Positions 470-26,034 of a stretch of DNA of 63,652 bases are shown piece after piece. The DNA lies in contig JBMOHT010000004.1 in NCBI GenBank assembly GCA_049317705.1, forward strand, positions 1-63,652, given 5' to 3'. Source of the DNA: Bacteroidota bacterium. GTDB lineage: Bacteria > Bacteroidota > Ignavibacteria > UBA10030 > UBA8401. The notes below the pieces were generated by a model, which had not been told where the DNA came from, ran no database searches, and was given only the letters and a program-made list of their open reading frames with translations. Positions within the stretch are counted from its first letter, which is position 1. Each line of letters begins with the position of its first letter. The translations under genes were made by a program, and so were the position numbers.

Positions 470-841
470 ATGCCGAATAATGTATCCGAACAGAACCAGT
501 CATTCAAACAATGTTCACTCTGCAATACAGTGTGGCAGACAAAAGATGACTTTCTCACCGATCCGAATCTAAGACTGAACGGATACCAATTCACATCATT
601 GAAATTCCAGAATTCTTCGCGCGGCGGTGTGTTGTTATTCACCCATACGCTCGAGGAATGCGGCACAACACTCGCCGTCTATGCTCAGATCCTGAAAGAT
701 TCCACAGGCCGAATCCCTGATGGACGAACCGGAGAACAGTCCGTCAAGGTAGAACCAAAAAGAACTCAACACATCAATCGAATAGTCAAGAATATCATAC
801 AGCAGCACACATCATCACATAAGGAGACATGTCATGTCTGA
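470..841 (+). CDS. Hypothetical small Cys-containing protein (CSLC...EC)
   Basis: ATG 470 lies downstream of the sigma-54-like site. The stop overlaps the cheW start by 8 nt. No recognisable family. The TTG 431 start in the ORF track falls inside the promoter motif. Confidence 0.35.
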   Translation: MPNNVSEQNQSFKQCSLCNTVWQTKDDFLTDPNLRLNGYQFTSLKFQNSSRGGVLLFTHTLEECGTTLAVYAQILKDSTGRIPDGRTGEQSVKVEPKRTQHINRIVKNIIQQHTSSHKETCHV

Positions 842-5541: not shown

Positions 5542-7161
5542 ATGAAGATAGAAACGAAGATCCAGATACCCATTTTTATTTTCTCCGTCCTTCTCGCACT
5601 CGTGCTGAGCGTTCTCTATATGGAATTCCTCGGCAGTGTCGTCTTCGATCAGTTCTCGAAGAACGGATCATCCGTTGCTTCATCTCTGGGGATCTCAGGC
5701 AGGCTCAGTGTGATGATGAGGGATTCTGCGCAGCTCAATACCATCAGCGAATCGGCATTCTCCGATGAGAACGTCCGGTTCGTGTCGTATTATGACGACA
5801 AAGGAGAATGGATCACCACGCGCGGGAATGATGATCATATCGTGATCCCCAAAGAATTGCTGCGGACACAGAAACCGGTAACACAGGAAACGGAGACCGA
5901 GAAACTTGGGACAGTGGAAATGTTTGCCGTTCCGGTATTCGCCCGGGCAGGAGAAACATCGACCATCGGAACGGTTGTACTTGCGATATCAAAAGAGCAG
6001 CTCCATGAGAACCGCAATAACGCTGTTATGCTGGCGATCGGTTCGACAGTGATCCTGCTCGTTCTGGTGTTGGTCAGTTTCCGGTTCATCCTCCGTCAAA
6101 TGATCATTCAGCCGGTCAATCAGGTGATCGAATCCATCAATACAGCGGACCTCAACTCGCAGTTCAACTCCGTCCGCAAAGATGAAGTTGGCGATCTTCA
6201 GCGCTCATTCGATGGATTCGTCACAAATATCAAGAACACCCTCCTTCAGGTCTCTGAAGCATCCTCTGCGGTGGCAAGCGCCAGCGTAGAGATCAGCTCT
6301 TCGGCTGAGGAACTTTCCTCGGGCGCCAGCGAACAGAGTGCGCAGTCAGCCGAAGCATCCACGGCGGTAGGCGAAATGGCCGGCAGCATTTCAGAGAATA
6401 CCCGGAATGCAAAAGAGACGCTCGAAACGGCACATCAGGCGAAACAGACTGCGGAACAAGGCGGTATCGTCGTTCAACGGACCGTCGACAGCATGAAGAA
6501 TATCGCTCTGGTCGTGAATCGGTCCGCTGAAACGGTGAAGACACTCGGAAAATCGAGCGACCAGATCGGCGAGATCGTCAGCGTGATCAACGACATCGCC
6601 GATCAGACGAATCTGCTTGCATTGAACGCTGCCATCGAAGCGGCACGCGCCGGTGAACAAGGACGCGGTTTCGCCGTTGTGGCCGACGAAGTGAGGAAAC
6701 TTGCCGAACGGACAACGAAAGCGACCAAAGAGATCGCATCGATGATCAAACAGATCCAGTCCGATACCAAAGAAGCGGTCATGTCCATGGATGAAGGGAC
6801 CAAGAAGGTCTCCGACGGTATTCAGCTCGCAGACCATGCCGGCGACTCACTGCTGGAGATCATGAAGATCAGCCAGATCGTGACTGAAAAAGTGACACAG
6901 ATCTCAGCGGCGAGCGAACATCAGTCCCACGCCAGCGCGATGATCAGCAACAGCGTCGATAAGATCAACGCCGTCACTCATCAGAATGTTGAGGGGACGA
7001 GGATGATCGCACAATCGGTGGAAGCATTGAATCATCTCACGGATAATCTGCAGTTGCTGCTCGGGAAGTTCAAACTCGGCAATGCCCGGCAGTCAGGCTC
7101 GGATCATCATGAACGTTCACGAAAAGCCGTGTCGGAACATGGGCATTTGGTGGACCATTGA
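5542..7161 (+). CDS. mcp: Methyl-accepting chemotaxis protein 3 (about 150-aa periplasmic sensor of unassigned fold)
   Basis: TM1, periplasmic region, TM2, HAMP ([13 protein letters not shown]), conserved signalling hairpin, C-terminal [14 protein letters not shown] tail. Confidence 0.93.
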
Positions 7162-7253
7162 ACATAGTAATTTTCCGATGACCGTTGAAGGTCGTCGGGA
7201 TACGTATCCGATCACATAGAAAATATTTACCATTAGACGCAAAGGATTTCGCC

Positions 7254-8876
7254 ATGAAACAGACCATACTTTTTCTTCTGATGATATCCGCACTTCTTCC
7301 GTCATCGTCACCGGCTCAGAATTTCAATAAAGTGATCGAGATCGTCGGCGGATTGGAAGAGTCCATGAAAGGACTCATCGCCAAAGAAGAGCGGACACGT
7401 ACGCAGGAGATCGCAGCGATCCGTTCCGACATCACATCGCTGAAGACGGCACTCTTCAAAGAGGATACCGTGAACAGCAAACATCTGCTCATCGCATCCG
7501 CTGATGCACAGAGCGTTCTTGACCGTCTTGAAGTGCTTGAGAACCGACCGGCTCCGCAGGGAGCATCACCCGAAATGAATTCACTTGCTGGACAGTTGGA
7601 TCAGCTGGTCGATGAATTGAAAAAGGTCGTTGACGAGGGAAAAGCGCTGCAGCAGAAACAGCTCACCGTTCCTCCACAGTTATATACGATCAACGGACAG
7701 GTCCGTCACCGCGGTGAAGTTGACGGACGCACGTTCGCTCCCGAGGCCCGCGCGATCGGTTACAACCTTCTCCGTTCACGGTTCACCGTTTCCATTGCTC
7801 CTGCTGCGGATACGAAGATCATGTTCCAACTGCAGGATTCGCGTGTGTTCGGTGCAGGGAATCCGGCACTGAACCGCGGCGTGCAGGACGGTATGTCGAA
7901 ATCCATCGATTTCCATCAGGCATATTTCGCACTCACCAATGTCTTCTCGCTGCCGATGAGTGTGAAACTCGGCAGACAGGAACTTGCATACGGGAAACAG
8001 CGGTTGATCGCTTCCGCGGGATGGAATAATTTTGGCAATACATTCGACGCGCTCTCTGCACAATACAATGCAGGTCCGGCGACCTTTGATGCATTCTTCG
8101 CAAAACTCGTCGGAAGCCAGACAAGCGTCTATTCCGAGAATATCACCGGATTGTATTCCCTGGTAAAATACAGCGATGCTCATACTGCCGATGCGTTCGT
8201 CTTCTATGATAATAATACCACACCGCTGTTAAAAGGGACCGACAAAGGAAAAGCGCGTCTCGGCAGGTATTCCACCGGTATCACCCTGATGGGAAAACCA
8301 AAACCGTTCGATTACGAAGCGGAGTTGATCCTTCAGCGCGGTTCGTATGCGGTCACGGACAGTTCTTCCGTCTCATCGATCTCCGCATATCTCTACTCGG
8401 TCTCAGCGGGATATCTGATCGATGCTAACAGCAAACTGCGTGTCGGTGTGAAATTCCAGGTAATGTCCGGCGACGATAATCAGAAGGTCGGGAAGTATTC
8501 GAGCTATAATACACTCTTCTCATCCGCTCATTCATTCTTCGGATATATGGATTTCTTCCCGAAGTCATCCCCGGAATACGGTGTTCGCGCTTATTCCGTC
8601 CATTCAGGCATGGAACTGTCGCCGGAACTTTCATGGAACGCCGATATGTACTATTACCTGTATGACGCGGTGCCGACATTGAAAACGTCATCCGGCGCGA
8701 TCGTGAAGGACCAGTCGCTCGGTTACGAGGCGGACCTTACGATGGCCTATAAATACTCCAGTATGGTAACGATCAATTACGGCGGCAGTGCGTTCATTCC
8801 TGAAACAGCGATGATCGCGTTGAAAGGTCCCGCAGTTTCCTATTGGGGATTTGTAATGACAACGATCAATTTTTGA
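7254..8876 (+). CDS. Outer-membrane beta-barrel porin, alginate-export (AlgE-like) family candidate, with N-terminal coiled coil
   Basis: ATG 7254 gives the signal peptide MKQTILFLLMISALLPSSSPAQ. GRQELAYGKQRLIASAGWNNFGNTFDAL resembles the alginate-export signature. The C-terminal ...TTINF is an aromatic terminus typical of OM barrels. Confidence 0.6.
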   Translation: MKQTILFLLMISALLPSSSPAQNFNKVIEIVGGLEESMKGLIAKEERTRTQEIAAIRSDITSLKTALFKEDTVNSKHLLIASADAQSVLDRLEVLENRPAPQGASPEMNSLAGQLDQLVDELKKVVDEGKALQQKQLTVPPQLYTINGQVRHRGEVDGRTFAPEARAIGYNLLRSRFTVSIAPAADTKIMFQLQDSRVFGAGNPALNRGVQDGMSKSIDFHQAYFALTNVFSLPMSVKLGRQELAYGKQRLIASAGWNNFGNTFDALSAQYNAGPATFDAFFAKLVGSQTSVYSENITGLYSLVKYSDAHTADAFVFYDNNTTPLLKGTDKGKARLGRYSTGITLMGKPKPFDYEAELILQRGSYAVTDSSSVSSISAYLYSVSAGYLIDANSKLRVGVKFQVMSGDDNQKVGKYSSYNTLFSSAHSFFGYMDFFPKSSPEYGVRAYSVHSGMELSPELSWNADMYYYLYDAVPTLKTSSGAIVKDQSLGYEADLTMAYKYSSMVTINYGGSAFIPETAMIALKGPAVSYWGFVMTTINF

Positions 8877-8938: not shown

Positions 8939-11098
8939 ATGATCAGTATCCGTCAATGGTTCCTTCTTATGGTGTTGTGCTCAGCAGTGACGCTGACAGC
9001 CAACGCTCAGCAGGCAGAAGAGAAAAAAGCGCTTAGCGTTCGCGAACAGCTGGAGCAGTTAGCGGCTCAGGAAAAGAGCCAGCCGGCCAAGAATAATATC
9101 AATAAGCATGAGGATGAACAGGTTGCAAGAGTAAAGCGGCACAGCATTCCTGCCGCAGCAGAACAGAAAGAAATTACAGCACCGCAGGAAATTGTATCGG
9201 TCCCTGCACCGGAATATTCCAGCACGGAGGTGCCGAAGTCGGCACCTGTGAAAGCGAAGGATATCCGCGATGGACCAAACACCGGTACCGGATCGGCCGG
9301 AATATATGCGATCGTTGCAGTAATACTTCTCTCTTTTCTCACTTTCATCTTGATAAGGAATACAATTATGAATTGGCTCAATAATCTAAAGATCAGCAGT
9401 AAACTGATGCTTGCCTTCAGCTTGGTATGCATCATTGCGACGATCATCGGATACGTCGGATTCTCATCGACAAACGATATGGCGGCCGCGAGTCAGGTGA
9501 TGTATGAAAAACAGGCCTATCCCATCGGCGTGCTTGCTAATATGGATGACCGTTTTCAGCGTATCCGCGTGAACACCCGTGACGTTCTTCTTGCAACGAC
9601 AGATGCTGATATGGAAGATAAAATTGAAAAGATCAAAACATACCGCGAAGAGATCGACGGCTTTGCAAAGAAATATGAAACAACCATAATGACTGAGGCC
9701 GGCAGGAAAAAATTCGAGGAATTCGTCGATGCAAGGAAAGTATACGGCGGTTATTTAGATGAACTTATCTCACTCGCAAAATCCGGTAAAGATGCTGATG
9801 GCTTCAAACTGTTAAATGGCGATATGGCTAAGGCTTCCAGAGTTGAACAGGACCTGATCTTCGGAATGCTTGAACAAAAGATGAATCTTGCTGAAGCATC
9901 GGCCACTCAAAATAGTGAAGATGCGCAGTCCGCTTCAATGCAAATACTGGTCATTCTTGCATTCGGCGTGGTCGTTTCATTCGGTCTCGGACTCTTCATT
10001 GCACGCTCCATCGCAAATCCTGTGAACGATGTCGTTCAGAATATCAAGAATGCCGACCTCCATTCACAGTTCAATTCCACCCGCAAGGATGAGATCGGAC
10101 TTCTGCAGCAGGCATTCGACGGTTTCGTTCTCTCCATCAAACAGACACTTGTGCAAGTATCGGAAGCATCCGCCGCCGTTGCCAGCGCGAGCACGCAGAT
10201 CAGTTCCTCAACCGAAGAACTTGCCGCCGGTGCACAGGAACAGAGTTCACAATCCGCCGAGGTCGCCGGTGCGGTCGAAGAAATGACCAAGACCATTATG
10301 GAAAATTCGCGCAACGCCGGTGATACCGCAACCACTGCCAAGAAAGCGAAAGATACCGCTGTTGAAGGAGGAGATGTTGTCCGCCAAACTGTCGACGGTA
10401 TGAAAGAGATCGCGAAGGTCGTGAACAAATCCGCTGATACGGTGAAAGCACTCGGCAAATCGAGCGATCAGATCGGCGAGATCATCAGCGTGATCGACGA
10501 TATCGCAGACCAGACGAATCTTCTTGCATTGAATGCCGCCATCGAAGCAGCGCGTGCCGGTGAACAGGGACGCGGATTCGCCGTCGTTGCCGATGAAGTG
10601 CGCAAACTTGCCGAACGGACAACGAAAGCAACGAAAGAGATCGCATCGATGATCAAACAGATCCAGACCGATACGAAAGAAGCGGTCATTTCGATGGACG
10701 AAGGGACGAAGAAGGTCGGCGAAGGGATCACCCTTGCAGATCGCGCCGGTGCATCACTGGAACAGATCGTTGGGATCAGTCAAATGGTGACCGATAAGAT
10801 CGCACAGATCGCAGCGGCAAGTGAACAGCAGTCCAGCGCCAGCGAGCAGATCAGCAAGAATGTGGAAGCGATCAGCGCCGTCACACAACAGAGCGCCAGC
10901 GGAACACAGCAGATCGCACGCACGGCAGAAGATCTGAACCGCCTCACGGAGAATCTGCAGGAACTTCTGGCGAAGTTCAACCTGAATGCGTCAGCGGACA
11001 GCAGTCGGCGTGAATCAACACCGGTCCGCCAGAAGAGCTATCACCAGAAATCGAAAAAAGCTGTTTCCGAACACGGACAATTGGTAGAACACCACTAA
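8939..11098 (+). CDS. mcp: Methyl-accepting chemotaxis protein 4 with a 143-aa N-terminal extension (alternative internal start 9368)
   Basis: From ATG 9368 ([18 protein letters not shown] 8 nt upstream) the protein matches MCP1/2 in length and layout. The in-frame upstream part has a signal peptide, a low-complexity region and an extra TM. Confidence 0.9.
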
Positions 11099-13476: not shown

Positions 13477-15192
13477 ATGAAAACACGACGATCACTCAAT
13501 GTTCAGCAGAAGCTCTATCTTTTTCCGGCGATCATCATCGGCGTAATGTTCATTGCGTGGGGGTGGTATTCCGAGGTCAATCAGGGGAAGGAATCAGAGA
13601 ATGCGTTCCGCGGACAGCTTTCGGTACTGGCGCATACATCCACATTCATGAGCCACGGCTCCGCCGAACAGCTCGCGCAGGAAAAAGGATGGGAATTCCA
13701 TCGCATTCTTGTTGATGGAGATGCGGACACGAGTCTTTTTGGAAAGTGCGAACAGCGTGCAATGTCGACGCTCAAAGCAGATGCGTCAATGAAATCATAC
13801 GAAGAGATGTTCCCTACCGATTCGGCGAAGATGCTTGCCGTATTCGTCCCTGCGCGGATCCAGAGTGAATGCTACACATGCCACAATGAATCCGGTATCG
13901 ACATCTTCGGCGGAAAGAAAGAAGGGGAATTGGTAGCGGTCTTCGGTGTCGCCGGTTCATTGCAGGAAGTGGAAGCGCATCAGGCGGAGATCTTCTATCT
14001 GACAGCGATCATCTGTATCGTATGTGTTGTTGTGACCATCGTTGTCATACGGTCCACCTCCCATGCGATCGTCGTCGGTCCTGTGAAGGAACTGTCATTG
14101 CAGTCGGAAAAGATCTCCACCGGAGACCTCCGTTCGATGGTAACACCGCATCTCGAGAAGAAGATGGGCAGCCAGGATGAGGTTGGCGCACTGTCCCGTT
14201 CCTACAAGACGATGCTTGATTCGCTCCGTTCACTCATTCTGCGGTTGATGGACTCGGCGAATTCCGTCGCGTCGGCATCACAGCAGATCAGCAGCACTTC
14301 CGAAGAGATCGCCGCAGGAACATTGCAGCAGTCATCACAGGTAGGCGAGGTCTCAACGATGATCGAAGAGATGTCGAATTCCATCCATAAAAATTCTCAA
14401 AATGCGGTAGAAACAGCGGAAACAGCCCGAAAAGCGAGCCAATCGGCTGCCGGCGGAGAGCAGCTCGTCCGTCAGACCATCGATGGAATGAAACGCATCG
14501 CGATCGTAACGCGTGATTCCGCGAAAACAGTGAATACTCTGGAACGGTCCAGTGAACAGATCAGCGAGATCATCTCCGTAATCGACAGCATTGCGGACCA
14601 GACCACACTGCTGGCGCTGAATGCCGCCATTGAAGCGGCTCGTGCGGGTGAACAAGGGCGCGGATTCGCTGTTGTGGCAGGAGAAGTTCAGAAATTAGCT
14701 GACAGGACGACTTCCGCCACCAAAGAGATCAGCGACATGATCAAAAAGATCCAGTCCGACACCAGGGAAGCGGTACGCTCCATGGATGAAGGAACAAGAG
14801 AAGTCGAAAAAGGAATTGAACTTGCCGAGCAGGCCGGTACAGCACTCACCGAGATCAAGACCACCTCAGAACAGATGAGCGCCATGGTAACGAAGATCGC
14901 CGACGCAAGCAAGGATCAGGCGGTGAATGCTGAACAGATGACGAAGAATGTTGTTTCCATCACGAATATGACCTCACAGACCTCCACCGGTGTTCAGCAG
15001 ATCGCATTGGCGTTGGAAGAACTGAGTAATTTAACAACAACGCTGCAGGACATAGTGAATAATTTCACGTTGGACGGACAATCAAAGGATGACGGCAAAG
15101 CATATGAGCATTCGTATTCCGAAAGAGAAACATCGGCTGTGCACCGGCAAGAAGACGTATTCAACGAGAATGAATATGAGCATGCTCAATAG
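13477..15192 (+). CDS. mcp: Methyl-accepting chemotaxis protein 6 with periplasmic c-type haem (CxxCH) sensor
   Basis: CYTCH at 13870-13884 lies in the periplasmic region between TM1 and TM2. The HAMP and signalling hairpin are more diverged ([32 protein letters not shown]). Confidence 0.9.
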
Positions 15193-15226
15193 TGAGCGCT
15201 GTTTTTAGAAAGAATGATATTGTGTG
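15190..15226 (+). repeat. Solo end fragment related to the terminal repeat of the 18411-18600 element
   Basis: TAGTGagcgCTGTTTttagaaagaatgATATTGTGT versus TAGTGCTGTTTccaataaatcATATTGTGT at 18412. Both begin at the TAG stop of an MCP gene. Confidence 0.4.
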
Positions 15227-15277
15227 AAGGCATTTACCGATTCCCTCTCGTGTGATAGTGGACCAGAAAGAAATGTT

Positions 15278-15685
15278 ATGTCGCAAGTACTTTGGAATGA
15301 TTCATTGAGCGTAAGTATTCCGTCGATCGATACTCAGCACAAAGCATTGATCGCCATGATCAATGAATTGGACGGAGCAATTCTCCGCGGACAATCCATG
15401 CTGGTTACCGGTGCGATCATTGAGAAATTACTGATGTATGCAGAACATCATTTCGCGTATGAAGAACAGTGTATGAAGCAGTGTGCATTTGCACAAATCG
15501 AGACGCATCGTTGCCAGCATGATGAACTCCGTGAGAAAGTAAAAGAATTCAGTATCGCGTACGCTAATTCCGTTCCCGGAATCAGCGAGGGTCTTTTGGA
15601 ATTTCTCTACCAATGGCTGCAGGGTCACATTTTACGATCGGATAAACAATATACATCCCAATTTCAATCGCACAATATCACGTAG
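15278..15685 (+). CDS. Bacteriohemerythrin 2
   Basis: DTQH, HHFAYEE (HxxxE), HRCQH (HxxxH), HILRSD (HxxxxD). ATG 15278 is preferred over the GTG 15224 extension. Confidence 0.88.
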   Translation: MSQVLWNDSLSVSIPSIDTQHKALIAMINELDGAILRGQSMLVTGAIIEKLLMYAEHHFAYEEQCMKQCAFAQIETHRCQHDELREKVKEFSIAYANSVPGISEGLLEFLYQWLQGHILRSDKQYTSQFQSHNIT

Positions 15686-15729: not shown

Positions 15730-16248
15730 ATGAAATATTCCGTTCAACCCACCAGCGAAGAACTTGTCATGCGGGACAACGAATTCATCATCTCTAAGAC
15801 CGATCTGCAGGGAAAGATCACCTATGCAAATCGGACATTCATGGAGTATAGCGGATTCACGGAACAGGAACTCCTCAATGCCCCGCACAGCATCATCCGT
15901 CATCCCGACATGCCGCGCGGTGTATTCAAACTCCTTTGGGATACCGTTCAAAGCGGAGTGGAGATCTGTGCATACGTGAAGAACATGTCCAAGTCCGGCG
16001 CATACTATTGGGTCTTCGCGAATGTCACACCTGTCGTAGACGGGAACGGTGCCATCGTGGGATATTATTCCGTCCGCAGAAAACCGAAGACTGAAGCGAT
16101 CCGCGCTATCGAGCCGTTATACCGTGAGATGCTTCAGGCGGAGCAGAGGACGAATTCCAAAGAAGCACCATCCGTATCGGTGCAGCTGGCGGTTGAAAAA
16201 TTAAAAGAATTGAGCATCGAATATGATGAGTTCGTTCTTTCCTTATAA
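15730..16248 (+). CDS. Free-standing Aer-type (FAD-binding class) PAS protein 1
   Basis: [47 protein letters not shown]...YVKNMSKSGAYYWVFANVTPV parallels the E. coli Aer PAS region (RHPDMP, LW, VKNR-KNG-YWV). No TM or MCP domain. Confidence 0.85.
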   Translation: MKYSVQPTSEELVMRDNEFIISKTDLQGKITYANRTFMEYSGFTEQELLNAPHSIIRHPDMPRGVFKLLWDTVQSGVEICAYVKNMSKSGAYYWVFANVTPVVDGNGAIVGYYSVRRKPKTEAIRAIEPLYREMLQAEQRTNSKEAPSVSVQLAVEKLKELSIEYDEFVLSL

Positions 16249-16296
16249 GTATATCAATTCTCATACTCTTTCATGATGTCAATAAAAGGTGCACCT

Positions 16297-18414
16297 ATGA
16301 AACGCTTTCAAGATCTCAAAATACGAACGAAACTCCTTAGTGCTTTTCTTGGAATGGCATTGGTCTCCGGTGTGATCGGATGGATCGGATATGATTCAGC
16401 CCAGACCATGATGCAACTTCAGGATACGATCTACCTGGACCGGCTCGTCCCGATCCGTGATCTCGGTTTTGCCGGCAATGCAGTCCATCATGCGGATTCC
16501 AGGATCAAACAATTGGTCGCTGTAAAGGATCCCGTTGAAAAACGGCGATTGAATACTGAGATCGCAGCTGAAATAGCCAAAACGAATGAATTGATCGATG
16601 CATACAGTAAGACCTATCTTGTGGAAGAAGAGGTCACGAATTTGGCGAAATTTCGAGAGGAATGGCCGAAATTTGTCTCAGCTGCGGACGAGATCCGTTT
16701 GCTGGTTCAGCAGGGCCGGAATTTCGATGCGCAGAGGATCATTGATTCGGAATTATCGAAACGTTCTGAATCATCAGTGGCCTTCATTGAAGAATTGGTC
16801 AATGTCAATGCACGAGTGGCTGAACAGATCGACCACGAAACGGATACAACGTCCAATTGGGCAGTGACGAAATTATTAATAGCACTGTCCGCCGGACTCG
16901 TTATTTCCATTATGGTGGGAATGTTCTTCTCACGATACATTGCAAATATTCTGAACCAAATGGTGAACGCATCCAATAAGATAGCACAAGGTGAGATCGA
17001 TCAACGGATCGATTATCGTTCCGAAGATGAATTCGGAAAACTTGCCGATTCATTCCGAGGAATGATCGATTATATGCACGGCATCGCCACCGCATCTGAA
17101 GCGATCGGGAAAGGGAATCTTGATGTGAACGTTACCGCTAAATCATCGAATGATACGCTGTCGAACAGTTTCATCCGTACAGCGAACGTTCTGAAAAGTA
17201 TGAGCAAAGAGATCAACACGCTGAACGGTGCAGGACGGAATGGTTCTCTGACCGTGCGCGGAAATGCGTCGCAGTATCATGGTGAGTTCAAACAGATGAT
17301 CCAGGGGATCAATGAAACGCTCGACGCCATCGTCATTCCGCTCAACGAGAGCAATGATGTACTCTATAAAATGTCGCACGGCGATCTCTCCGTACGGTTG
17401 AATAACAATTATAAAGGTGACCTTCAGAAGATGAAGCAGTCCGTCAACACGGTCGGCGAATCACTCTCCAGTGCCCTGCAGAATGTCGCATTCTCCATCC
17501 AGGCAACGGCAACGGCAAGCAGTCAGATCTCCGCATCGGTCGAAGAAATGACCTCGGGATTGAACGAACAGTCCAGTCAGACCTCCGAAGTGGCGAGCGC
17601 AGTCGAGGAGATGGCGAAGACCATCATGGAGAATTCCAAGAATGCCGTCGATACTTCTGAGACCGCAATGAAAGCAAAACAGTACGCGCAGGAAGGATTC
17701 GACGTCGTAGAAGAGACAGCGGTCGGTATGACGAAACTTGCGGAGATCGTCCGCAGATCGGCTGAGACCGTTCACGAACTCGGCCGCTCGAGCAATCAGA
17801 TCGGTGAGATCGTCCGCGTGATCGAAGATATCGCCGATCAGACGAATCTGCTCGCTCTGAACGCCGCGATCGAAGCAGCACGCGCCGGTGATCAGGGACG
17901 CGGATTTGCCGTCGTCGCCGATGAAGTGCGCAAGTTGTCCGAACGGACGACGAAATCCACAAAAGAGATCGCGGTAATGATCAAGAAGATCCAGAGCGAG
18001 ACCTCGGGTGCCGTGGAATCCATGGAAGAAGGAACACGCAGTGTTGATGTCAGCATCGAACAGACGGAGAAAGCCCGCGTATCACTGAATCACATCCTCG
18101 ACATCTCTCAAAAGGTGACAGAGATGGTCTCCCATATCGCAACGGCAAGCACCGAACAGACGAGGGCCAGCGATGTGATCAGCAAGAATATCGATGCCAT
18201 CAGCGCGGTCGCACAGCAAAGCTCCGTCGGCAATCAGCAGATCGCCAAAGCAATGAACGATCTGAATCAACAGACCGACCATCTGCAGAACCTCATCGGT
18301 ACATTCAAATTCTCCGGTGATGAATCGAAGATGCATGCGCCGAGAACTGTCCGGAATGATAAGAAGCATCGTCAGCCGGCGTTCGAGAACGGTTCAATGG
18401 AATATCATAACTAG
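16297..18414 (+). CDS. mcp: Methyl-accepting chemotaxis protein 7 (helical periplasmic sensor, at least two HAMP-like units)
   Basis: [14 protein letters not shown] start (ATG 16297). HAMP ([14 protein letters not shown]), a second HAMP-like segment ([22 protein letters not shown]), then the signalling hairpin with [21 protein letters not shown]. Confidence 0.9.
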
Positions 18415-18600
18415 TGCTGTTTCCAATAAATCATATTGTGTTTTCAAACAGTCACGCTGAGCGACGTCCCGACAATACTTCCCCCAATGGGGTCCCTTCG
18501 GGAGACTCGTCCACCCGTGGTGGACTCGCTCAGTATGACTGTCGGGACGGAGTCGAAGCGTATTTAAAAATATAATCTTACTTTTTAGAAACAGCACTAG
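18411..18600 (+). mobile_element. 190-bp MITE-like structured element with perfect 13-bp terminal inverted repeats
   Basis: ctagtgctgtttc (18411-18423) is the exact reverse complement of gaaacagcactag (18588-18600). It is flanked by, or includes, CTAG on both sides. The interior is packed with hairpins. A paralog lies at 49427-49552. Confidence 0.7.
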
Positions 18601-18632
18601 AATACAATCACAATAATGAATACGGGAATATT

Positions 18633-19151
18633 ATGAGAATGAATATCCAGCCGACGAACGAAGAACTCGTCATGCGAGACGGAGAGTTCATCGTATCGAA
18701 GACCGATCTGAAAGGTCAGATCACGTACGGTAACAGGACCTTTATGGAATTTGCGGGACATCCGGAAAAAGACCTTCTGGGAGCGCCGCACAATATCATC
18801 CGTCATCCCGATATGCCGCGGGGCGTTTTCCAACTTTTGTGGGACACGATCCGCAGCAACGCGGAGATCTTCGCCTATGTCAAGAATATGAGCGCAAACG
18901 GCGCATTCTATTGGGCGTTTGCAAATGTCTCTCCGGTGGTGGACGGGAACAATAATGTTATCGGATACTGCTCCGTCCGCCGTAAACCGTCATCGTCTGC
19001 CATTCAGACGCTGATTCCGGTCTACCGTGAAATGGTCCGGATCGAACAAAAGAGTAAATCAAAAGAATCGGTCATAGAATCGGTTGAATACCTTAAAAAT
19101 TTTTTGAATGAAAGGACGATGAGTTATGAAGAGTTTATTCTCAGTATTTAA
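18633..19151 (+). CDS. Free-standing Aer-type PAS protein 2
   Basis: Paralog of 15730-16248, also 172 aa ([19 protein letters not shown]...[21 protein letters not shown]). Confidence 0.85.
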
Positions 19152-21522
19152 CCGATGGTCATTGAAAGGGAAGATCGATTCCATGTTCCTGCTGCTGGGA
19201 GCATTCTCAATGATGCTTGCAATAGCCGTTGTCTTCAGTTTCTATCAGATCAATCTGCTGAATGAAAAATCGGATTCCGTCAGCGAGGATGCTGTTGTGA
19301 TGCGTGAGATACAGTACCACACCTCTCAGGTCTGGCAGTATGTGACCGATTATGCCCTCACATTCGATGAAGCAGCCGATATGAAGGAAATTACCGATCA
19401 CAAGAATGCTGCGGTCGAAAATATCAAACACGTCATGAAGTCAGAAGCATTGTCCGCTGAAGATAAAGCGCTGCTGCTGAGTGTTCAAGCCGGTATTGCA
19501 CAGATGGCAACCGATGGAGTTGCGATGGGCAAAGCCTACCGTACGGACAAACGGGCAGGAGACCGCTTGATGACTGAATATGATGCGATCGCCGACGGAA
19601 CAGTCAAGAAGATCGACCAACTGGTGAAAGATGCCGGTGCCAATGTGATCGGCATTGCTGCTGAAAAGACTGCTGCCATTCAGACCATTATGATCGTGAT
19701 CGGCGTACTGCTCATGATCAGCATGGTGATGGGTTACTTCGTCTCACGGTGGCTCTCCGGTTATGTCACCAGACCGATCAACAAGATCAGCGCGGTCTCC
19801 AAAAAGATCGCCGAAGGTCAGTTCGTGGAACGCATCACCAATATCAACGAGAAGGATGAACTCGGAACCCTTTGCTGGGAATTCAACGACATGGTCGACC
19901 AGATCGAGACCTTGTTGAAGGAGATCATCACATCGATCGAATATTCAAGCAAGGGAAAATATTTCCGTAAACCGATCCCCGACGGCTTGAAAGGGATGCT
20001 GAACAAGACAGCGATCCAGGTGCAGCAGGCACTGCAGGAACAGGAACACCGCGAAAAACTGATTGAGCACGATAAACAATACCTCAGCACCAAAACAGCT
20101 GAACTTCTGGCAGCAATGGAGAAATTCTCTCACGGCGATCTTACCGTATCGGTCGATTCTGAGAAGGATGATGAGATGGGGAAACTGTTCGACGGTTTCA
20201 ATCTGTCTGTAAATAATCTTAACAAGAAGATGCGTGCGGTCAATGATGCTGCTGAAAAAGCCGCACACGCCGGTTCCACCATCAGTTCCAGCACCACACA
20301 GATGGCTGCCGGTGCCGAAGAACAGTCCACCCAATCCTCCGAAGTGGCGAGCGCCATGGAAGAGATGACATTGACCATCGGCGACAATTCCAAGAACGCA
20401 CAGATCGCCGTTCACACGGCGCAGCAGGCGAAGAATGCCGCTGAACACGGCGGTTCACTCGTGCAGAAGACCGTCCACGGAATGGAGAAGATCAGCGATA
20501 TCGTCCGGAGTTCGGCTGATACCATCCACACACTCGGGAAATCGAGCGTTCAGATCGGCGAGATCGTCGGCACCATCAACGATATCGCAGACCAGACCAA
20601 TCTGCTTGCACTCAACGCCGCTATCGAAGCAGCGCGTGCCGGCGAACAAGGAAGAGGGTTCGCGGTCGTTGCGGATGAAGTACGTAAACTTGCAGAACGG
20701 ACAACACGCGCAACAAAAGAGATCGCAATGATGATCCGTAAGATCCAGGAAGAGACCACCACAGCGGTCGAAGCAATGGAAAAAGGGACGCGCAATGTGG
20801 AAGAGGAACGGGTCCTTGCAAAAGAGGCCGGTAATGCATTGACGGAGATCGTTACGATCGTGAACAAGGTCACCGACATGATCACGCAGATCGCGGAAGC
20901 GAATGCACAGCAGACCAAAGCAAGCGATGAGATCAGCAGGAATATCGTCGGTATCTCTTCGGTGACGAATGAGAATGCCCATGCGATCGATCAGATCTCG
21001 CGTTCGGCGGAAGAGGTCGCTCAGATCACTACAACGCTCTCATCGATGGTGATGGAATTCGTCCTGTTCGGCAACAACGAGCATCTTCGCGGACGAGGCA
21101 CCAGTCTTGCCGTTGCACCCGGCGGTAGACTCGTTCCGGAACGGCAGAAGAATGAATCATTCGATATCGACGCCGCCATCGAAGCGCACAATCAATGGAA
21201 AGGCCGCATTCAGAACCTGCTGAACGGCAGAGAACATATGACCGTGGACCAGGTAACGACCCATCTGCAATGCAAACTCGGCAAATGGTATTACGAGGAA
21301 GGGCAGTCGCAATACAAATCCAACTTCCACTTCCAGGAACTCGGAACGGCGCATGAAAAACTGCATGCCGTGCTGAAAGATGTCGTGCGGTTATACAACG
21401 ATGGACGGAAGAATGAAGCCCGCGAAGCAAGTGCCAGCGTGAACACCCTTTCGAAGAAGGTGGTGCAGGCATTGAACGAATTGAAGAACGATATGATGGT
21501 GCAACGAACGGAAGAAGTATGA
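19126..21522 (+). CDS. mcp: Methyl-accepting chemotaxis protein 8 with two HAMP-like units and a C-terminal CZB (chemoreceptor zinc-binding) domain
   Basis: C-terminal HNQW-x24-CKLGKW-x21-HEKLH fits the CZB motif Hxx[WFYL]-x21-28-Cx[LFMVI]Gx[WFLVI]-x18-27-HxxxH. The signalling hairpin is present. The start overlaps the PAS2 stop by 26 nt. Confidence 0.9.
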
Positions 21523-22538
21523 AGATCCTCATAGCCGAAGATGATGCACTGGTCCGCATCATGTTCCGGAAGGTCATGAAGGGGACCGAGTTCACCTTGG
21601 TCGAAGCAATGAACGGCGAAGAAGCTCTTGCGAAGATGAGATCGGAAGAGTTCGACGCCGTCATCACCGACTGGATGATGCCGAAGATGGACGGGATCGA
21701 ACTGATCGCGAACATCCGGAAACGTCAAAGTGATCCTCCGTATATCCTTATGGTGACGGCGATCTCCACTGACGATGCGATGAAGAAAGCACTCGATGCC
21801 GGTGCGGATGATTTCATCACCAAGCCGTTCTTTCGTGAACCGCTCCTTCAGTCAATTCGGAACGGTATCCTTCGCAGCAAACAGGGGAAAGGTGTCTCCA
21901 AGATCATGTCCGCCAAGAGCGCGGCTACGAGGCACTCAATGATCGCGATCGGTATCGCCTCAAGCACAGGCGGTCCGCAGACGCTGATGAAATTATTTCC
22001 GGATATTCCTAAGTTCACCAATGCGGCGATCTTTCTAGTGCAGCACGGTCCGGCCTGGATGCTCCGGTCGTTCGCGCTGCGGCTGAAAGAGATCACACCG
22101 ATGGGAGTGTTCATCGGTGAGGACGGGATGAGATTCAATCCCGGCAATATCTACATCGCACCGGGTGATATCCATATGATCGTCGATCCGAACAGCGATG
22201 TATTGCGGCTGATCGATGATCCGCCGGAAAATTACTGTAAGCCGGCTGCTGATCCGCTCTTCCGCAGTATCGGTGCTGCATTCGGAACGTCCGCCGTCTC
22301 CGTCGTGCTCAGCGGAATGGGGAAGGACGGCACCATCGGTTCCGGATACATCGCTGCCTCCGGCGGGACGGTCCTCGCGCAGGATCCGTCAACGGCTATT
22401 CTTCCGTCCATGCCGAAAAGCATTGTCGATCTCAGAATTGCCTCAGAGGTTCATCCGATAGAAAAACTTGGGAAAGCACTGGCAAATGTGGTGAACGATC
22501 TTACGCACAAACCAAAACTGAAAATATACGGCACATAA
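21519..22538 (+). CDS. cheB: CheB-type methylesterase with receiver domain (CheB1)
   Basis: REC (ILIAEDD...DWMMPKMDG...KPF) plus esterase domain with SSTGGP (Ser), LVQH (His) and GMGKDG (Asp). An ATGA overlap links it to the MCP8 stop. Confidence 0.85.
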
Positions 22539-22716: not shown

Positions 22717-24561
22717 ATGAGAACGATCATCAACAACATGGGGATCCGGTCGAAGATCATTTTACCCATATCGGTTTTTGCCGTAATAACGGTCCTGATA
22801 TTGTATAAATATTTTGATTCGACAATTCTTGACGCAAAGATCCAGGAACATGTTGCTGAAGCCCGGGCATTGATAGTCAGTTCCGAATCTGCCAGGGAAT
22901 ATGCTGCCGATCAGTTCCGTCTTGGTGTCTTTAAGGAAGGACTGAAAGATAAGGATCAAATTCTCCATACGGTTCCGGTCGTTGCTGCAATGCAGGTCAT
23001 TCAGAAAAAAGCGGATGAGATGGGTGTGATCTTCAAGGTTCCGAAGATCTCTCCGCGTAATCCTAAGAATCTTCCGGATGAATACGAAATTACAGTCCTG
23101 AAAAAACTCGAAAACGGACGACTGAATGAATACTGGGAATTTGACCGGGAAAAAGCTCAGCTTCGTTATTTTCGTCCGGTAAAACTGACGAAAGAATGCC
23201 TCGCGTGTCACGGAGATCCTGCAACGTCCGCCGAACTTTGGGGGAATACCGAAGGCAACGATGTGACCGGGACAAGGATGGAGAATTGGAAGGAAGGGGA
23301 GGTGCATGGTGCATTTGAGATCATCACCAACATGCAGCATGCCGTGATGGAAGCACATTCTGACTCCCGCATCGGTGCGCTGATCGTTATAGCGTGCGGT
23401 ATCTGCATTGTGATCGTCGGAATTTTTATTGCACGGTGGCTGAGCGGTCCGATCACGGAATTTTCAGTCCAGGCGGACAGTGTGGCAAAAGGTGATCTTC
23501 GTTTCAAACATACACCATTGCTCGAGAAGCAGATGAACACCGGTGATGAAATGGGACTGCTTGCACGGTCGTTCGGCGTTATGATCAATTCACTCAGGGG
23601 TATCATCCGGCAGGTCGGTGAATCAAGTGCATCAGTAGCGAGTGCGAGTATCGAGATCAGCGCTAGTACAGAACAGATGGCTGCCGGAGCACAGCAGCAA
23701 ACGCAGCAGGCCGCCGAAGTTGCAAGTGCCGTTGAACAGATGACGAAGACGATCATTGAGAATGCAAAGACCGCCCAAGAGACAGCAGAAACGTCAAAAA
23801 AAGCAAAAATGGCAGCAGAACAGGGCGGAAAAGCAGTGGAAGATACCGTCAATGGAATGAAACGGATCGCCGAGGTCGTACGCTCTTCCGCGGTAACGGT
23901 GCAGGATCTGGGAAAATCGAGCGATCAGATCGGGGAGATCATCGAGGTGATCGATGAGATCGCCGACCAGACAAATCTGCTTGCACTGAATGCGGCGATC
24001 GAAGCAGCACGAGCCGGTGAGCAGGGACGCGGTTTCGCCGTGGTTGCAGACGAAGTGCGTAAACTTGCGGAACGAACGACGAAAGCGACGAAAGAGATCG
24101 CTGTGATGATCAAGCAGATCCAGAGCGAAACGAAAGGTGCAGTGAATGCAATGGAAGCCGGGACCAAAGAAGTGGACCGCGGTATCCTTCTTGCGGACAA
24201 GGCCGGAGCTTCGTTGCAGGAGATCGTTTCCATCAGTCAACAGGTGACGCAGATGATCTCACAGATCGCTGCAGCGAACGAGCAGCAATCCCGAGCGAGC
24301 GAATTGATCGCGAAAAATGTTGAAGGAATGAGTGTGGTAACACAGGAAACTGCGAACAGCGCGCATCAAGTGGCGTTGACCGCAGACGATCTCAGTAAAT
24401 TGACCGGCCATCTCGAAGAGATCGTCGGGAAATTTCATCTGAGCGATTCGGAAGATATGCTGTCGAAACAACATCATTCCAGGAATCAATCAGCACCGGA
24501 TCAGAATCGGGGAAGCAAAGCTGTGACGAGCACCGGAAGGATCGTTGAGCGTTCACGATAG
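22717..24561 (+). CDS. mcp: Methyl-accepting chemotaxis protein 9 with periplasmic c-haem sensor (DUF3365/Tll0287-like)
   Basis: [13 protein letters not shown]...[20 protein letters not shown]...GEVHGAFEI carries CLACH at 23197-23211. HAMP and the signalling hairpin follow. Confidence 0.9.
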
Positions 24562-24747: not shown

Positions 24748-26034
24748 ATGAGATATACCATCCTCTTCCTTTCATTGTTCCAGATATCAACGCTGTCCGT
24801 TACCGCTCAAGAAAAAGAGATCGCAGGATTTGAGAGTGCTCTTCCTTCTGAAGAGACGAACGATCACAATGATGCGGCGGTTCCGGTCCCGGTCAACCCT
24901 TCATTCTTCCGCGCTGCGCAGGATCAATACGGCATCACACTCTCCGCAGTCATCAAGAACGAGTTTTGGAGTGTCATGAACGGCGGCATCCGGAAAGATC
25001 CGGAACAGCTGCTCAATGCCGACCTGACCGCATCGGTCGATCTCTCCAAACTCGCCGGACTCTCCGACGCCGCTTTTTTCATCCACTTCCTTGGGAACAA
25101 CGGCGAAAGTATCAGCAACGATGTCGGCGACATCCAGATGGTGAGCAATATCGAAGGATACAAGACCTTCAAGCTCTATCAATGCTGGTTCGAACAATCA
25201 TTCCCTTCTGCCGATCTCTCATTCCTTATCGGCGTTTTCGATCTGAATGCGGAGTTCTATGTCACTCCTTCTTCCGCACTTTTCCTGAATGGTTCGCATG
25301 GTGTCGGCATCGATCTCGGACAGACCGGATTGAACGGCCCATCGGTTTTCCCGAATACTTCGCTCGCTATGAGACTGCGGTATGCGCCGGAAGATAGGAT
25401 CTCGTATTCCGCCGCGGTCTTCGACGGCCGTCCCGGAGCACCCGATAATTGCAACAGTTTCGATCTCTCACTGAACGGACAGGACGGATATTTTCTCATC
25501 GGCGAAGCTGCGTATGAACGGAGCGGTTCACTCAAATGTGCTGTCGGAGCATGGTATTACACCGGTTCATTCGCAGATGTCTGTGCGGTGGAAGGACTTG
25601 AGGAATATTTTGAACGGAAGGATAATGCCGGAGCATATCTGCTGTTCGATCACGCACTCTATACAGAGCCGGGTGAACAGAGCGGCGGACTGAATATCTT
25701 CACGCGGTTTGGCATCACGAATGACCATGTCAATTTGATCCGGTCCCACGTCGGCGGGGGCCTGACCTATAAAGGACCGTTTGACGGCAGAGATGATGAT
25801 GAGTTCGGGTATGCATTCGCATATGCATCGTTCGGTTCGGACTTCCGGAGATTGACCAGCTTCTACGGCGAATCAATGGCATCATTCGAAGCAGCACATG
25901 AAGTGACGTATCGTGGAGCGCTGACTCCATGGTTCGCAGTGCAATATAATCTTCAATATATCATGCATCCTTCTGCATCAATAGATGTAAGTGATGTGTT
26001 CGTGCATGGTCTTCGCCTCGAAATATCGCTGTAA
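24748..26034 (+). CDS. Outer-membrane porin, OprB (carbohydrate-selective porin) family candidate
   Basis: Signal peptide MRYTILFLSLFQISTLSVTAQ and a beta-rich body. The C-terminal WFAVQYNLQYIMHPSAS...VHGLRLEISL resembles the OprB family C-terminus. Confidence 0.55.
   Translation: MRYTILFLSLFQISTLSVTAQEKEIAGFESALPSEETNDHNDAAVPVPVNPSFFRAAQDQYGITLSAVIKNEFWSVMNGGIRKDPEQLLNADLTASVDLSKLAGLSDAAFFIHFLGNNGESISNDVGDIQMVSNIEGYKTFKLYQCWFEQSFPSADLSFLIGVFDLNAEFYVTPSSALFLNGSHGVGIDLGQTGLNGPSVFPNTSLAMRLRYAPEDRISYSAAVFDGRPGAPDNCNSFDLSLNGQDGYFLIGEAAYERSGSLKCAVGAWYYTGSFADVCAVEGLEEYFERKDNAGAYLLFDHALYTEPGEQSGGLNIFTRFGITNDHVNLIRSHVGGGLTYKGPFDGRDDDEFGYAFAYASFGSDFRRLTSFYGESMASFEAAHEVTYRGALTPWFAVQYNLQYIMHPSASIDVSDVFVHGLRLEISL

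Follow-up and report, generated by a model that had tools for sequence, protein, structure and literature searches.

A probable CetB/CetA-type split receptor with a periplasmic sensor and a paralogous PAS-chemoreceptor gene pair in a motility gene cluster

The stretch of DNA analysed (63,652 nucleotides, hereafter the window) carries two tandem gene pairs, PAS1-MCP1 and PAS2-MCP2, within a large che/flagellar motility gene cluster. The second pair probably encodes a bipartite energy-taxis receptor of the CetB/CetA type, and the first a paralogous PAS protein placed before a chemoreceptor of 4HB-HAMP-HAMP_2 architecture, the HAMP domain of which is not CetA-type. PAS1 and PAS2 belong to the known CetB/CetA bipartite energy-taxis family, and the comparison with CetA/CetB made in the original prediction was correct. 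The unusual part is the periplasmic sensor of the CetA-type partner MCP2, which makes this pair a rare form of split receptor.

Organisation of the locus

The four open reading frames lie where they had been predicted (Table 1). The first in-frame ATG of MCP1 is at 16273, yet the orthologous proteins line up only from a later ATG (16297), which leaves the expected gap of 48 nt after PAS1; likewise, the last 26 nt of PAS2 overlap the start of MCP2. A structured spacer of 218 nt separates MCP1 from pair 2. The start of a CheB-type gene overlaps the stop of MCP2 by 4 nt, and this gene is therefore probably co-translated with pair 2; the order MCP2-CheB recurs in two related contigs (L001 and L166). 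The window MCP genes form a co-directional array of about ten, and CheA and CheW are encoded in the same cluster as MCP2. Synteny of the PAS-MCP arrangement extends to related contigs from metagenomes (L001, L169, L170, L174 and the P0008/P0023 contig), indicating that it is not due to chance.

Table 1. Coordinates of the genes and domains discussed in the text (all on the forward strand of the window)
Feature	Position (nt)	Residues (aa)	Strand	Description and basis
Hemerythrin gene	15224..15685		+	single domain, directly upstream of PAS1; Pfam Hemerythrin, E=2.5e-15
PAS1	15730..16248	172	+	stand-alone Aer-type (FAD-type) PAS protein, CetB-like; Pfam, structure matches
MCP1	16297..18414	705	+	Pfam domains, hydrophobic segments, orthologue alignment
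MCP1 periplasmic 4HB_MCP_1	16312-16848		+	between TM1 and TM2; Pfam
MCP1 HAMP	16924-17073		+	generic, not CetA-type; Pfam
MCP1 HAMP_2	17275-17463		+	Pfam
MCP1 MCPsignal	17659-18210		+	Pfam
PAS2	18633..19151	172	+	stand-alone Aer-type PAS protein, CetB-like; Pfam, identity to PAS1
MCP2	19126..21522	798	+	CetA-family transducer with added sensors; Pfam, HAMP signature, AF2 model
MCP2 periplasmic four-helix bundle	19261-19650	46-175	+	between TM1 and TM2
MCP2 CetA-type HAMP and conserved extension	19750-19995	209-290	+	after TM2
MCP2 further HAMP	20077-20241	about 318-372	+	
MCP2 MCPsignal	20413-20967		+	Pfam
MCP2 CZB	21187-21387	688-754	+	Pfam, E=1.8e-13
CheB-type methylesterase	21519..22538		+	receiver domain and CheB_methylest; Pfam, junction sequence

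Stand-alone PAS proteins

PAS1 and PAS2 are 62% identical over a gapless alignment. Both consist of a PAS domain alone (Pfam PAS_3, E=1e-12 and 7e-9, respectively) and neither sequence contains a hydrophobic segment, in agreement with the expectation that they have no transmembrane or signalling domain. In PAS1 the PAS core is followed by three C-terminal helices. Its sequence matches that of the Escherichia coli Aer PAS structure (8DIK) with E=2e-33, and its AF2 model (pLDDT 93) superimposes on 8DIK_A in Foldseek with a TM score of 0.96 and rmsd of 0.9 A, at 47% identity.

The FAD contacts given for Aer are H53, R57, W70, N85, R115, S22 and F37 (PMC9668731, PMC13232288), and every one of them is kept in both proteins. 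Residues S22, G28, F37, H53, R57, V65, W70, N85, V99 and R116 are all present in PAS1, and the FAD-contact residues of PAS2, read directly from the sequence, are the same. Among these, G28, V65 and V99, native here, correspond to the three substitutions that the isolated Aer PAS domain needed in order to hold FAD. Judged by sequence and, for PAS1, by the model, PAS1 and PAS2 are thus Aer-type flavin PAS domains, as had been proposed, and would be expected to bind flavin. The PAS motifs quoted in the original prediction are also present, with the small deviation that PAS2 has GAFYW in place of G.YYW.

Homologues of these proteins are numerous (more than 7,900 at E<1e-10), and nearly all of the 120 matches listed are 170-174 aa long. 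The gene context was sampled for 160 stand-alone PAS genes from other genomes and metagenomes, counting as partner any downstream MCP gene no more than 60 nt away. Such a gene was found in 114 loci, and in 74 of these pairs, which are independent and spread across phyla, the genes overlap by exactly 26 nt, as do PAS2 and MCP2; an upstream partner only was found in six. Co-conservation with the downstream MCP is therefore strong, as anticipated. Two of the novelties claimed for the locus did not hold: the PAS-first order, taken for a reversal, is the norm of the family and is also that of cetBA1-4 of Magnetospirillum gryphiswaldense, and the four pairs of the latter show that several pairs per genome had already been published (PMC12442639).

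MCP2, a CetA-family transducer with a periplasmic domain

Pfam recognises two HAMP domains, MCPsignal and a C-terminal CZB domain in MCP2, the zinc motif of the latter (H..W...C.LG.W...H...H, aa 688-747) being intact, and 4HB_MCP_1, HAMP, HAMP_2 and MCPsignal in MCP1. In each MCP, roughly 130-155 residues separate two hydrophobic segments, a spacing that leaves room for a real periplasmic domain. Both proteins thus have the large periplasmic domain and the at least two HAMP-like units that were predicted for them.

The periplasmic domain of MCP2 matched no Pfam sensor family. In the AF2 model (pLDDT 82.9) it forms four helices with a confidence above 90, and the top Foldseek match is a sensor-TM-HAMP fragment of NarQ (E=3e-5), although the nitrate-binding P-box of NarQ is not evident in the MCP2 sequence. 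Relatives with as little as about 21% identity still share the invariant residues W70, Q71, D75, G131, M134, Y138, G145, M149 and D153, while D146 is invariant only in a closer set of six sequences; the homologues sharing this domain include ordinary MCPs. The SRWL junction between TM2 and HAMP is conserved among orthologues.

Residues 1-330 of MCP2 found end-to-end matches in only about five clusters among 1.84 billion representative proteins. Three of these clusters were looked up, and their proteins, 27-33% identical to MCP2, are each encoded after a 172-aa PAS gene, with the 26-nt overlap in two of the three and in unrelated surrounding gene contexts. In all three, about 130 aa lie between the two TM segments, and the HAMP signature described below gives scores of 62-75 bits. 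A periplasmic sensor was absent from all 113 sampled partners outside this lineage. MCP2-like partners with a periplasmic sensor constitute a conserved subfamily, probably of Bacteroidota/Ignavibacteria-like bacteria, and in every case looked up their gene comes after a PAS gene.

The HAMP signature of the partner MCPs

A signature HMM comprising the end of TM2 and the HAMP domain was built from canonical partners, and is thus derived from gene neighbours. Elliott et al., in 2009, reportedly defined the conserved HAMP residues of the CetA family. Held-out canonical partners scored a median of 104-109 bits and MCP2 87-93 bits, its membrane-proximal HAMP carrying the family-specific AS-2 motif ([16 protein letters not shown]...GKYFRKP..GL.G), whereas MCP1 scored only 17-22 bits (10-22 bits at the widest) and the other eight MCPs of the window 0-13 bits; within the window the signature is present in MCP2 alone. 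The downstream-adjacent MCPs of other lineages all reached at least 33.5 bits (114/114), and nearly all at least 67 bits (112/114). The only signature-less proteins among 119 downstream-adjacent MCPs scored were three MCP1 orthologues (those of the window, L001 and L002). The signalling domain of MCP2 is closer to those of the other window MCPs (about 50%) than to those of canonical partners (about 30%), so that its family membership rests on the HAMP region and gene coupling.

In the window, L001, L002, L169, L170, L174 and the P0008 contig, every PAS1-clade gene has an MCP1 orthologue immediately behind it, at gaps of about 24-57 nt and down to 57% MCP identity. The MCP1 orthologues of L166 and L167 have no upstream PAS gene, a hemerythrin gene lying directly before them, and in the single-PAS relatives the PAS gene is located between the MCP1 and MCP2 orthologues. 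MCP1 and MCP2 are 38% identical from TM2 onward. Since MCP1 lacks the CetA-type signature, the case for pair 1 comes down to adjacency, which is weak evidence in an array of this kind. The prediction of two bipartite receptors can thus be retained for MCP2, and is weakened for MCP1 by the missing signature and by the orthologues devoid of an upstream PAS gene.

Proposed mechanism and alternatives

By analogy with Aer and CetB2/CetA2, soluble PAS2 would dock from the side onto the MCP2 dimer at its membrane-proximal HAMP, which would also be fed, via TM2, by the Tar/NarQ-like periplasmic bundle. MCP2 might thereby combine an outside ligand, a cytoplasmic redox signal and, probably, an oxidant or zinc signal. 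The output would pass through the further HAMP units and the kinase-control domain to the CheA/CheW of the cluster, adaptation being carried out by the translationally coupled CheB and by CheR. PAS1 might signal through MCP1, MCP2 or both.

A tentative alternative is that both pairs are independent functional receptors, PAS1 acting on MCP1 and PAS2 on MCP2, each with its own periplasmic ligand and redox input. The constant position of PAS1-clade genes shortly before MCP1 orthologues in the window and related contigs, the full set of FAD residues in PAS1 and the multi-HAMP cytoplasmic layout common to MCP1, MCP2 and HAMP_2-containing canonical partners argue for it. Against it stand the HAMP score of MCP1, below that of every downstream-adjacent MCP from other lineages, the hemerythrin genes occupying the place of PAS1 in two contigs and the ease with which adjacency arises in a dense MCP array; moreover, the positions invariant in the family bear no change peculiar to the PAS1 clade that might hint at a new docking surface. 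This retention of the canonical surface would suit a rather doubtful reading in which PAS1, alone or in a mixed pair with PAS2, is a second PAS input to MCP2, leaving MCP1 as an ordinary ligand-sensing chemoreceptor. Such an arrangement would resemble that of Campylobacter jejuni, in which CetC, like CetB, signals through CetA and the two PAS proteins work together (PMC3558505). It agrees with the restriction of the partner signature to MCP2 and with the location of the lone PAS gene of relatives. However, the whole of MCP1 and the structured spacer separate PAS1 from pair 2, the position of PAS1 directly before MCP1 is conserved, and the comparison covers 63 kb, while other CetA-type MCPs may exist elsewhere in the genome.

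It is unlikely that the periplasmic bundle of MCP2 is a non-ligand-binding remnant or spacer and that MCP2 works as a hairpin CetA with a single input. The absence of a Pfam sensor match, from which no ligand can be deduced, and of an evident P-box would be consistent with this, but W70, Q71, D75, Y138 and D153 (and D146 in closer homologues) remain invariant at about 21-27% identity, ordinary MCPs included, the domain is modelled with high confidence and the SRWL junction is kept. Very improbable is the reading of the PAS proteins as free-standing redox regulators that signal through no MCP, their linkage to MCP genes being incidental. The evidence here for a PAS-MCP interaction is indirect, which would fit this reading, but it is opposed by the recurrent exact overlap across phyla, by the existence of a partner-specific HAMP motif and by the published physical interaction and shared phenotypes of CetB/CetA and CetB2/CetA2 (PMC2628428, PMC12442639). 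A CetB/CetA-type receptor encoded by pair 2, with a paralogous PAS gene before MCP1, remains the preferred reading.

Comparison with known systems

A close likeness is to CetBA1-4 of M. gryphiswaldense, where the gene for a separate PAS protein (about 173 aa) also comes first, the genes overlap and several pairs occur in one genome. CetB2 is an FAD-binding protein, an interaction partner of CetA2 and a regulator of aerotaxis (Herz et al. 2025, PMC12442639). Its set of FAD-binding residues (H, R, F, W, N, V, R) is identical to that found here, and its N55 corresponds to N54 in PAS2 but to S54 in PAS1. According to the supplement of the same paper, CetA1 and CetA3 carry CZB, as does MCP2, and CetA4 possesses an additional periplasmic domain that is unassigned, in which it resembles the present MCPs by description only (PMC12442639). 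The PAS-first order, multiple pairs, a CetA with a periplasmic domain and CZB tails are, thus, already published. The present locus differs in that each of the two adjacent MCPs combines a periplasmic four-helix bundle with three HAMP-like units, one of these MCPs lacks the partner HAMP motif, the pairs form a tandem within a large che/flagellar cluster, and the host probably belongs to the Bacteroidota/Ignavibacteria group rather than to the alphaproteobacteria.

[quoted passage not shown] There, however, cetA comes first, cetB follows after a gap of 17 bp, and the CetA protein is a helical hairpin whose periplasmic loop is only short (PMC2628428), whereas here the PAS gene leads and large periplasmic domains are present in the transducers. 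The single-chain FAD-PAS aerotaxis receptor Aer of E. coli (PDB 8DIK; cryo-EM work of 2026, PMC13232288) shares the PAS domain with all its flavin contacts, and its lateral PAS-to-HAMP (AS-2) signalling is the presumed mechanism here; unlike the separate PAS proteins of the window with their three-helix C-terminal extension, the Aer PAS is fused through the F1 linker to a TM hairpin, and Aer has no periplasmic sensor. The canonical partners of Beta- and Gammaproteobacteria (for instance Niveibacterium and Thiobacillus; L004, L018) share with MCP2 the 26-nt overlap, the HAMP signature and, often, a C-terminal CZB, but are about 480-500 aa long, with a single hydrophobic hairpin in place of the periplasmic domain and a shorter signalling domain. 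If PAS2 docks as proposed, MCP2 could combine a periplasmic ligand and cytoplasmic redox in one transducer.

Organisation of the PAS/MCP locus

The window represents a single large chemotaxis and flagellar locus, which encodes CheW, CheR, CheZ, CheA, two CheB proteins and about ten co-directional MCPs, followed by flg/fli/flh genes; among named proteins, its FlhA is best matched by those of Bacteroidetes/Bacteroidota and Ignavibacteriales MAGs. Two free 172-aa PAS proteins (PAS1 and PAS2), each encoded directly upstream of a membrane chemoreceptor (MCP1 and MCP2, respectively), had been predicted, and all four ORFs were found as described: PAS1 and PAS2 carry a PAS domain only, with no hydrophobic segment, transmembrane (TM) segment or signalling domain, and align without gaps at 62% identity. 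MCP1 and MCP2 each contain two hydrophobic segments located about 130-155 residues apart. The MCP1 start was placed at the ATG at 16297, since orthologues align from there, which gives a spacing of 48 nt from PAS1; the PAS2 and MCP2 genes overlap by 26 nt. Close relatives with the entire arrangement are the loci L001, L169 and L170 and the metagenome contig P0008/P0023. An Rfam scan of the whole window gave zero matches. Scans for promoters and terminators did not outperform shuffled sequence and are therefore uninformative on operon structure.

Coordinates of the PAS/MCP genes and neighbouring features (positions in the window unless another locus is named)
Feature	Position	Product or domains
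PAS1	15730-16248	172 aa; PAS domain only (Pfam PAS_3)
MCP1	16297-18414	4HB_MCP_1, HAMP, HAMP_2, MCPsignal (Pfam)
PAS2	18633-19151	172 aa; PAS domain only (Pfam PAS_3)
MCP2	19126-21522	two HAMPs, MCPsignal, C-terminal CZB (Pfam)
PAS2/MCP2 overlap	19126-19151	26 nt
Hemerythrin gene	15224-15685	
Hemerythrin genes, L001	5395-5796; 9366-9773	
Hemerythrin genes, L166	163-2156	
Hemerythrin genes, L167	945-2931	
cheB next to MCP2	21519-22538	CheB methylesterase
cheB of core cheA operon	32541-33668	CheB methylesterase
Outer-membrane porin genes	7185-8876; 24748-26034	Alginate_exp, OprB families
Short ORF	4994-5530	ABC_sub_bind-like
MCP 3' of short ORF	5542-7161	
MCP with N-terminal extension	8939-11098	4HB domain
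First flanking MCP	13477-15192	CxxCH at aa 132
Second flanking MCP	22717-24561	CxxCH at aa 161
Palindromic element, copy 1	18448-18545	
Palindromic element, copy 2	~49451-49545	

PAS proteins as Aer-type, probably flavin-binding domains

PAS1 matched the E. coli Aer PAS structure 8DIK by sequence (E=2e-33), and its AlphaFold (AF2) model (pLDDT 93) superimposed on 8DIK_A with a TM score of 0.96, an rmsd of 0.9 A and 47% identity. The flavin contacts of Aer are H53, R57, W70, N85 and R115, together with S22 and F37 (PMC9668731; PMC13232288). In the alignment to Aer, all seven contacts were present in both PAS1 and PAS2, R115 of Aer corresponding to position 116 here. H53, R57, W70, N85 and R116 are invariant among the aligned close relatives; in a broader set of 33 PAS sequences the last four remain invariant, with conservation of 90% or more at H53. 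PAS1 and PAS2 would probably bind flavin. Three substitutions, G28, V65 and V99, were engineered into isolated Aer-PAS before it retained FAD (PMC9668731); all three occur natively in the PAS proteins here, which fits a PAS domain obliged to bind flavin unaided. The C-terminal 50 residues of the PAS protein were modelled by AF2 as three helices, which hold the family-invariant residues Y131, M134, E138, L158 and Y165.

Gene order in the PAS family

More than 7,900 PAS homologues were found at E<1e-10; of the 120 matches listed, almost every one is a stand-alone protein with a length of 170-174 aa. In the metagenome scan, the best among the matches listed was 63% identical, closer relatives being recovered by exact-protein look-ups. 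Analysis by script of 160 loci taken from species-representative genomes and metagenomes revealed an MCP gene no more than 60 nt downstream of 114 of the 160 stand-alone PAS genes outside the window's lineage, versus an upstream MCP alone in six cases. The PAS-first order, originally regarded as a reversal that sets this locus apart, is therefore the rule. In 74 of the 114 downstream pairs the genes overlap by exactly 26 nt, the same as in PAS2/MCP2. In PAS2/MCP2 these 26 nt encode both the PAS C-terminus (..YEEFILSI) and the MCP N-terminus (MKSLFSVF), both conserved, and this dual coding may have fixed the overlap length across phyla.

The downstream partners are mostly of about 480-520 aa and, with the exception of a single false call (113 of 114), have a single long hydrophobic hairpin and lack a periplasmic domain. 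Many of them end in a CZB (chemoreceptor zinc-binding) domain, and some contain HAMP_2.

HAMP signature of the PAS partners

A partner-specific profile (the signature) was built as an HMM from the end of TM2 and the next 75 residues of canonical partners, that is, hairpin-anchored MCPs encoded next to a PAS gene; its consensus is ..aaGklesRItgi.ekDElg.laWelNdMlDQlE.yfrEv....y...gkffRkp. Elliott et al. (2009) reportedly defined the conserved HAMP residues of the CetB/CetA family of split PAS/MCP energy-taxis receptors, and the signature, being derived from gene neighbours (74 canonical partners), may differ from that residue list. Canonical partners held out from the HMM scored a median of 104-109 bits, and upstream-only partners in the cetA-then-cetB order (Thiodiazotropha) 90-96 bits. 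None of the 114 downstream-adjacent MCPs of other lineages fell below 33.5 bits, and 112 scored 67 bits or more. MCP2 scored 87-93 bits, MCP1 17-22 bits and the remaining eight MCPs of the window 0-13 bits; MCP1 and its orthologues were the sole outliers among the downstream-adjacent MCPs scored. Judged from these sequences, the signature picks out true PAS partners, and the motif W-E-x-N-D-M-x-D-Q-x-E...G-K-x-F-R-K-P would be a practical marker telling them from MCPs that merely adjoin a PAS gene. In Aer, the PAS beta-sheet packs on the HAMP segment AS-2 and the connector (PMC13232288); the analogy suggests the conserved AS-2 motif as the likely PAS docking site.

Several Beta/Gammaproteobacteria (nine loci: L032, L051, L052, L083, L106, L112, L114, L136 and L156) encode an Aer2/McpB-like membrane-bound receptor 24-44 nt 5' of the PAS gene, overlapping the PAS start by 4 nt in L032. 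This poly-HAMP receptor (HAMP, McpB_HAMP_2, HAMP_N3, HAMP_2 and MCPsignal, plus a periplasmic domain) is without the partner HAMP signature, such receptors scoring 8-18 bits. A hairpin partner downstream of the PAS gene was scored as well in seven of the nine loci, the exceptions being L083 and L112. Poly-HAMP receptor, PAS protein and hairpin partner form a recurrent aerotaxis gene triad.

MCP2 and the periplasmic-sensor subfamily

The N-terminal part of MCP2 (residues 1-330) was searched exhaustively against 1.84 billion representative proteins, since a word-indexed search gave two weak matches and missed an orthologue of 82% identity. Only about five clusters matched end to end. The other strong matches fell into two groups: hairpin partners, which aligned over the HAMP region alone, and ordinary MCPs, which aligned over the periplasmic-plus-HAMP scaffold alone at about 25% identity. 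Three full-length matches (27-33% identical), from three unrelated gene contexts, were examined: a 172-aa PAS gene lies directly 5' in all three, with the 26-nt overlap in two, and in each protein some 130 residues separate the two TM segments, the signature scores being 62-75 bits. Co-conservation of the PAS gene with the downstream MCP, on which the original prediction depended, thus holds for pair 2 (PAS2 and MCP2), and the transducers with a periplasmic sensor form a conserved subfamily. One distant relative of the pair adjoins a gene for a protein with a T9SS tail; from this and the FlhA relatives, the host is probably an uncultured bacterium of the Bacteroidota/Ignavibacteria group.

A four-helix bundle is located between TM1 and TM2 in both window transducers, by Pfam in MCP1 (4HB_MCP_1, E=4e-35) and, as predicted by modelling, in MCP2. 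The periplasmic region of MCP2 gave only non-significant TarH/4HB matches in Pfam, a relaxed threshold included; its AF2 model consists of four helices (pLDDT about 90) and was matched by Foldseek to the sensor-TM-HAMP fragment of NarQ (E=3e-5) and to the ligand-binding domains of PcaY_PP and Tsr. Ten residues of the bundle (W70, Q71, D75, L78, G131, M134, Y138, G145, M149 and D153) are invariant in relatives down to about 21% identity, and D146 is invariant within a closer six-sequence set, which argues for a working sensor in MCP2. NarQ-like nitrate sensing, suggested by the structural match, was considered and set aside, as no P-box-like motif was evident by eye.

The C-terminal CZB domain of MCP2 (aa 688-754; PF13682, E=1.8e-13) retains an intact zinc motif, H688..W...C.LG.W...H...H747; within the periplasmic subfamily this tail is confined to the window's close lineage. 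Pair 2 is well supported as a putative CetB/CetA-type receptor by sequence, modelling and co-conservation. Together with PAS2, the periplasmic bundle and the CZB tail make it plausible that MCP2 is a three-input receptor, in which PAS2 would dock on the HAMP and the signals would be integrated.

Does PAS1 work through MCP1?

The expectation of two bipartite receptors is supported for pair 2 by its signature score and co-conservation, and for pair 1 (PAS1 and MCP1), with its score at outlier level, only by adjacency. The 48-nt linkage of PAS1 and MCP1 is conserved in the close lineage only. PAS1 may signal through MCP1 via an unrecognised interface. In favour of a functional pair, every PAS1-clade gene has an MCP1 orthologue next after it, at identities as low as 57%; against it, MCP1 is without the signature, the family-invariant positions of PAS1 carry no clade-specific change, and a hemerythrin gene precedes the MCP1 orthologue (60% identical) of L166 and L167. 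A clade-specific docking surface on PAS1 was also looked for, and just four conservative differences were found at otherwise conserved positions. Alternatively, PAS1 may supply MCP2 with a second input, in the way that CetC works together with CetB in C. jejuni. A single PAS gene lies between the MCP1 and MCP2 orthologues in L166 and L167, overlapping the latter by 26 nt. In a neighbour-joining tree the PAS1 clade is sister to PAS2 plus the single-PAS clade, a branching too weak to separate an old duplication and loss from a recent duplication.

In this lineage, single-domain hemerythrin genes are repeatedly found directly 5' of MCP genes, and as many as three stand in tandem ahead of the MCP1 orthologue. 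A free hemerythrin with an MCP could constitute another type of split sensor alongside the PAS/MCP pairs.

Other features of the locus

The first cheB gene starts within the end of MCP2, with a 4-nt overlap at the stop codon, a position kept in L001 and L166. Two porin genes are interspersed among the MCP genes, odd company for a chemoreceptor array, and this too is kept in L001 and L166. In one MCP the 4HB domain is preceded by about 145 additional N-terminal residues that include extra hydrophobic segments; another, directly downstream of the short ABC_sub_bind-like ORF, has a periplasmic domain without family assignment. The two MCPs that flank the PAS/MCP pairs carry a CxxCH haem-c motif in the periplasmic domain, within a Tll0287-like domain (the Pfam match being strong for the second and weak for the first), which makes them candidates for chemoreceptors that sense redox state or oxygen through a periplasmic haem.

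An intergenic palindrome about 100 nt long, with the core AGTCACGCTGAGCGACGTCCCGACA...TGTCGGGACGGAGTCGAAGC, is present in two copies, one in the MCP1-PAS2 spacer, with an additional inner hairpin, and one after fliP. The spacer has a folding z of -4.5, and the element is without an Rfam match and is missing from the equivalent L001 spacer. In appearance it resembles a repeat of the REP/MITE type or a hairpin at a transcript end.

Comparison with known systems

Bipartite PAS/MCP receptors have been viewed as sensor-less transducers merely relaying a cytoplasmic redox signal. It is possible, though rather doubtful as a whole, that a conserved CetA subfamily, probably in Bacteroidota/Ignavibacteria-like bacteria, takes inputs of two distinct mechanical kinds at one HAMP (a piston movement of TM2 driven by a periplasmic ligand sensor of the four-helix-bundle type, and the lateral docking of a detachable FAD-PAS protein), with a CZB zinc/oxidant sensor at the opposite receptor end, and that PAS1-MCP1 may show the detachable PAS module redirected to a chemoreceptor that lacks the canonical docking motif. 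If the latter were true, free PAS proteins would be plug-in redox modulators of ordinary ligand-sensing chemoreceptors. A subfamily with a periplasmic ligand-binding bundle would suit the study of piston and lateral PAS inputs at a single HAMP, a question made sharper as full-length Aer structures emerge.

The locus encodes a CetB/CetA-type bipartite flavin-PAS chemoreceptor system, and the likeness to C. jejuni CetA/CetB, the founding case (PMC2628428), holds: a stand-alone PAS gene adjoins a co-oriented MCP gene, and the linkage is conserved. The family was counted in 55 species, according to the summary in PMC2886117. The best-studied PAS-first example is Magnetospirillum gryphiswaldense, which has four overlapping cetB-cetA pairs; its CetB2 is an FAD-binding protein that interacts with CetA2 and determines the oxygen threshold of aerotaxis (PMC12442639). 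In the supplement of the same paper, CetA1 and CetA3 carry CZB, and CetA4 is described as having "an additional periplasmic sensing domain" for which databases gave no match. The gene order, duplication and periplasmic sensor, originally proposed as three departures from CetA/CetB, therefore each have a published precedent. Design, gene order, multiplicity, CZB tail and one periplasmic-domain case are already published, and this is not a new kind of system. Whereas a sensor-less hairpin transducer with a short loop is typical of the family, MCP1 and MCP2 have periplasmic bundles of about 130-155 aa; the absence of an own sensor is typical of CetA transducers, not strictly defining, CetA4 being a reported exception, and the periplasmic four-helix bundle on the transducer is the unusual and conserved feature here.
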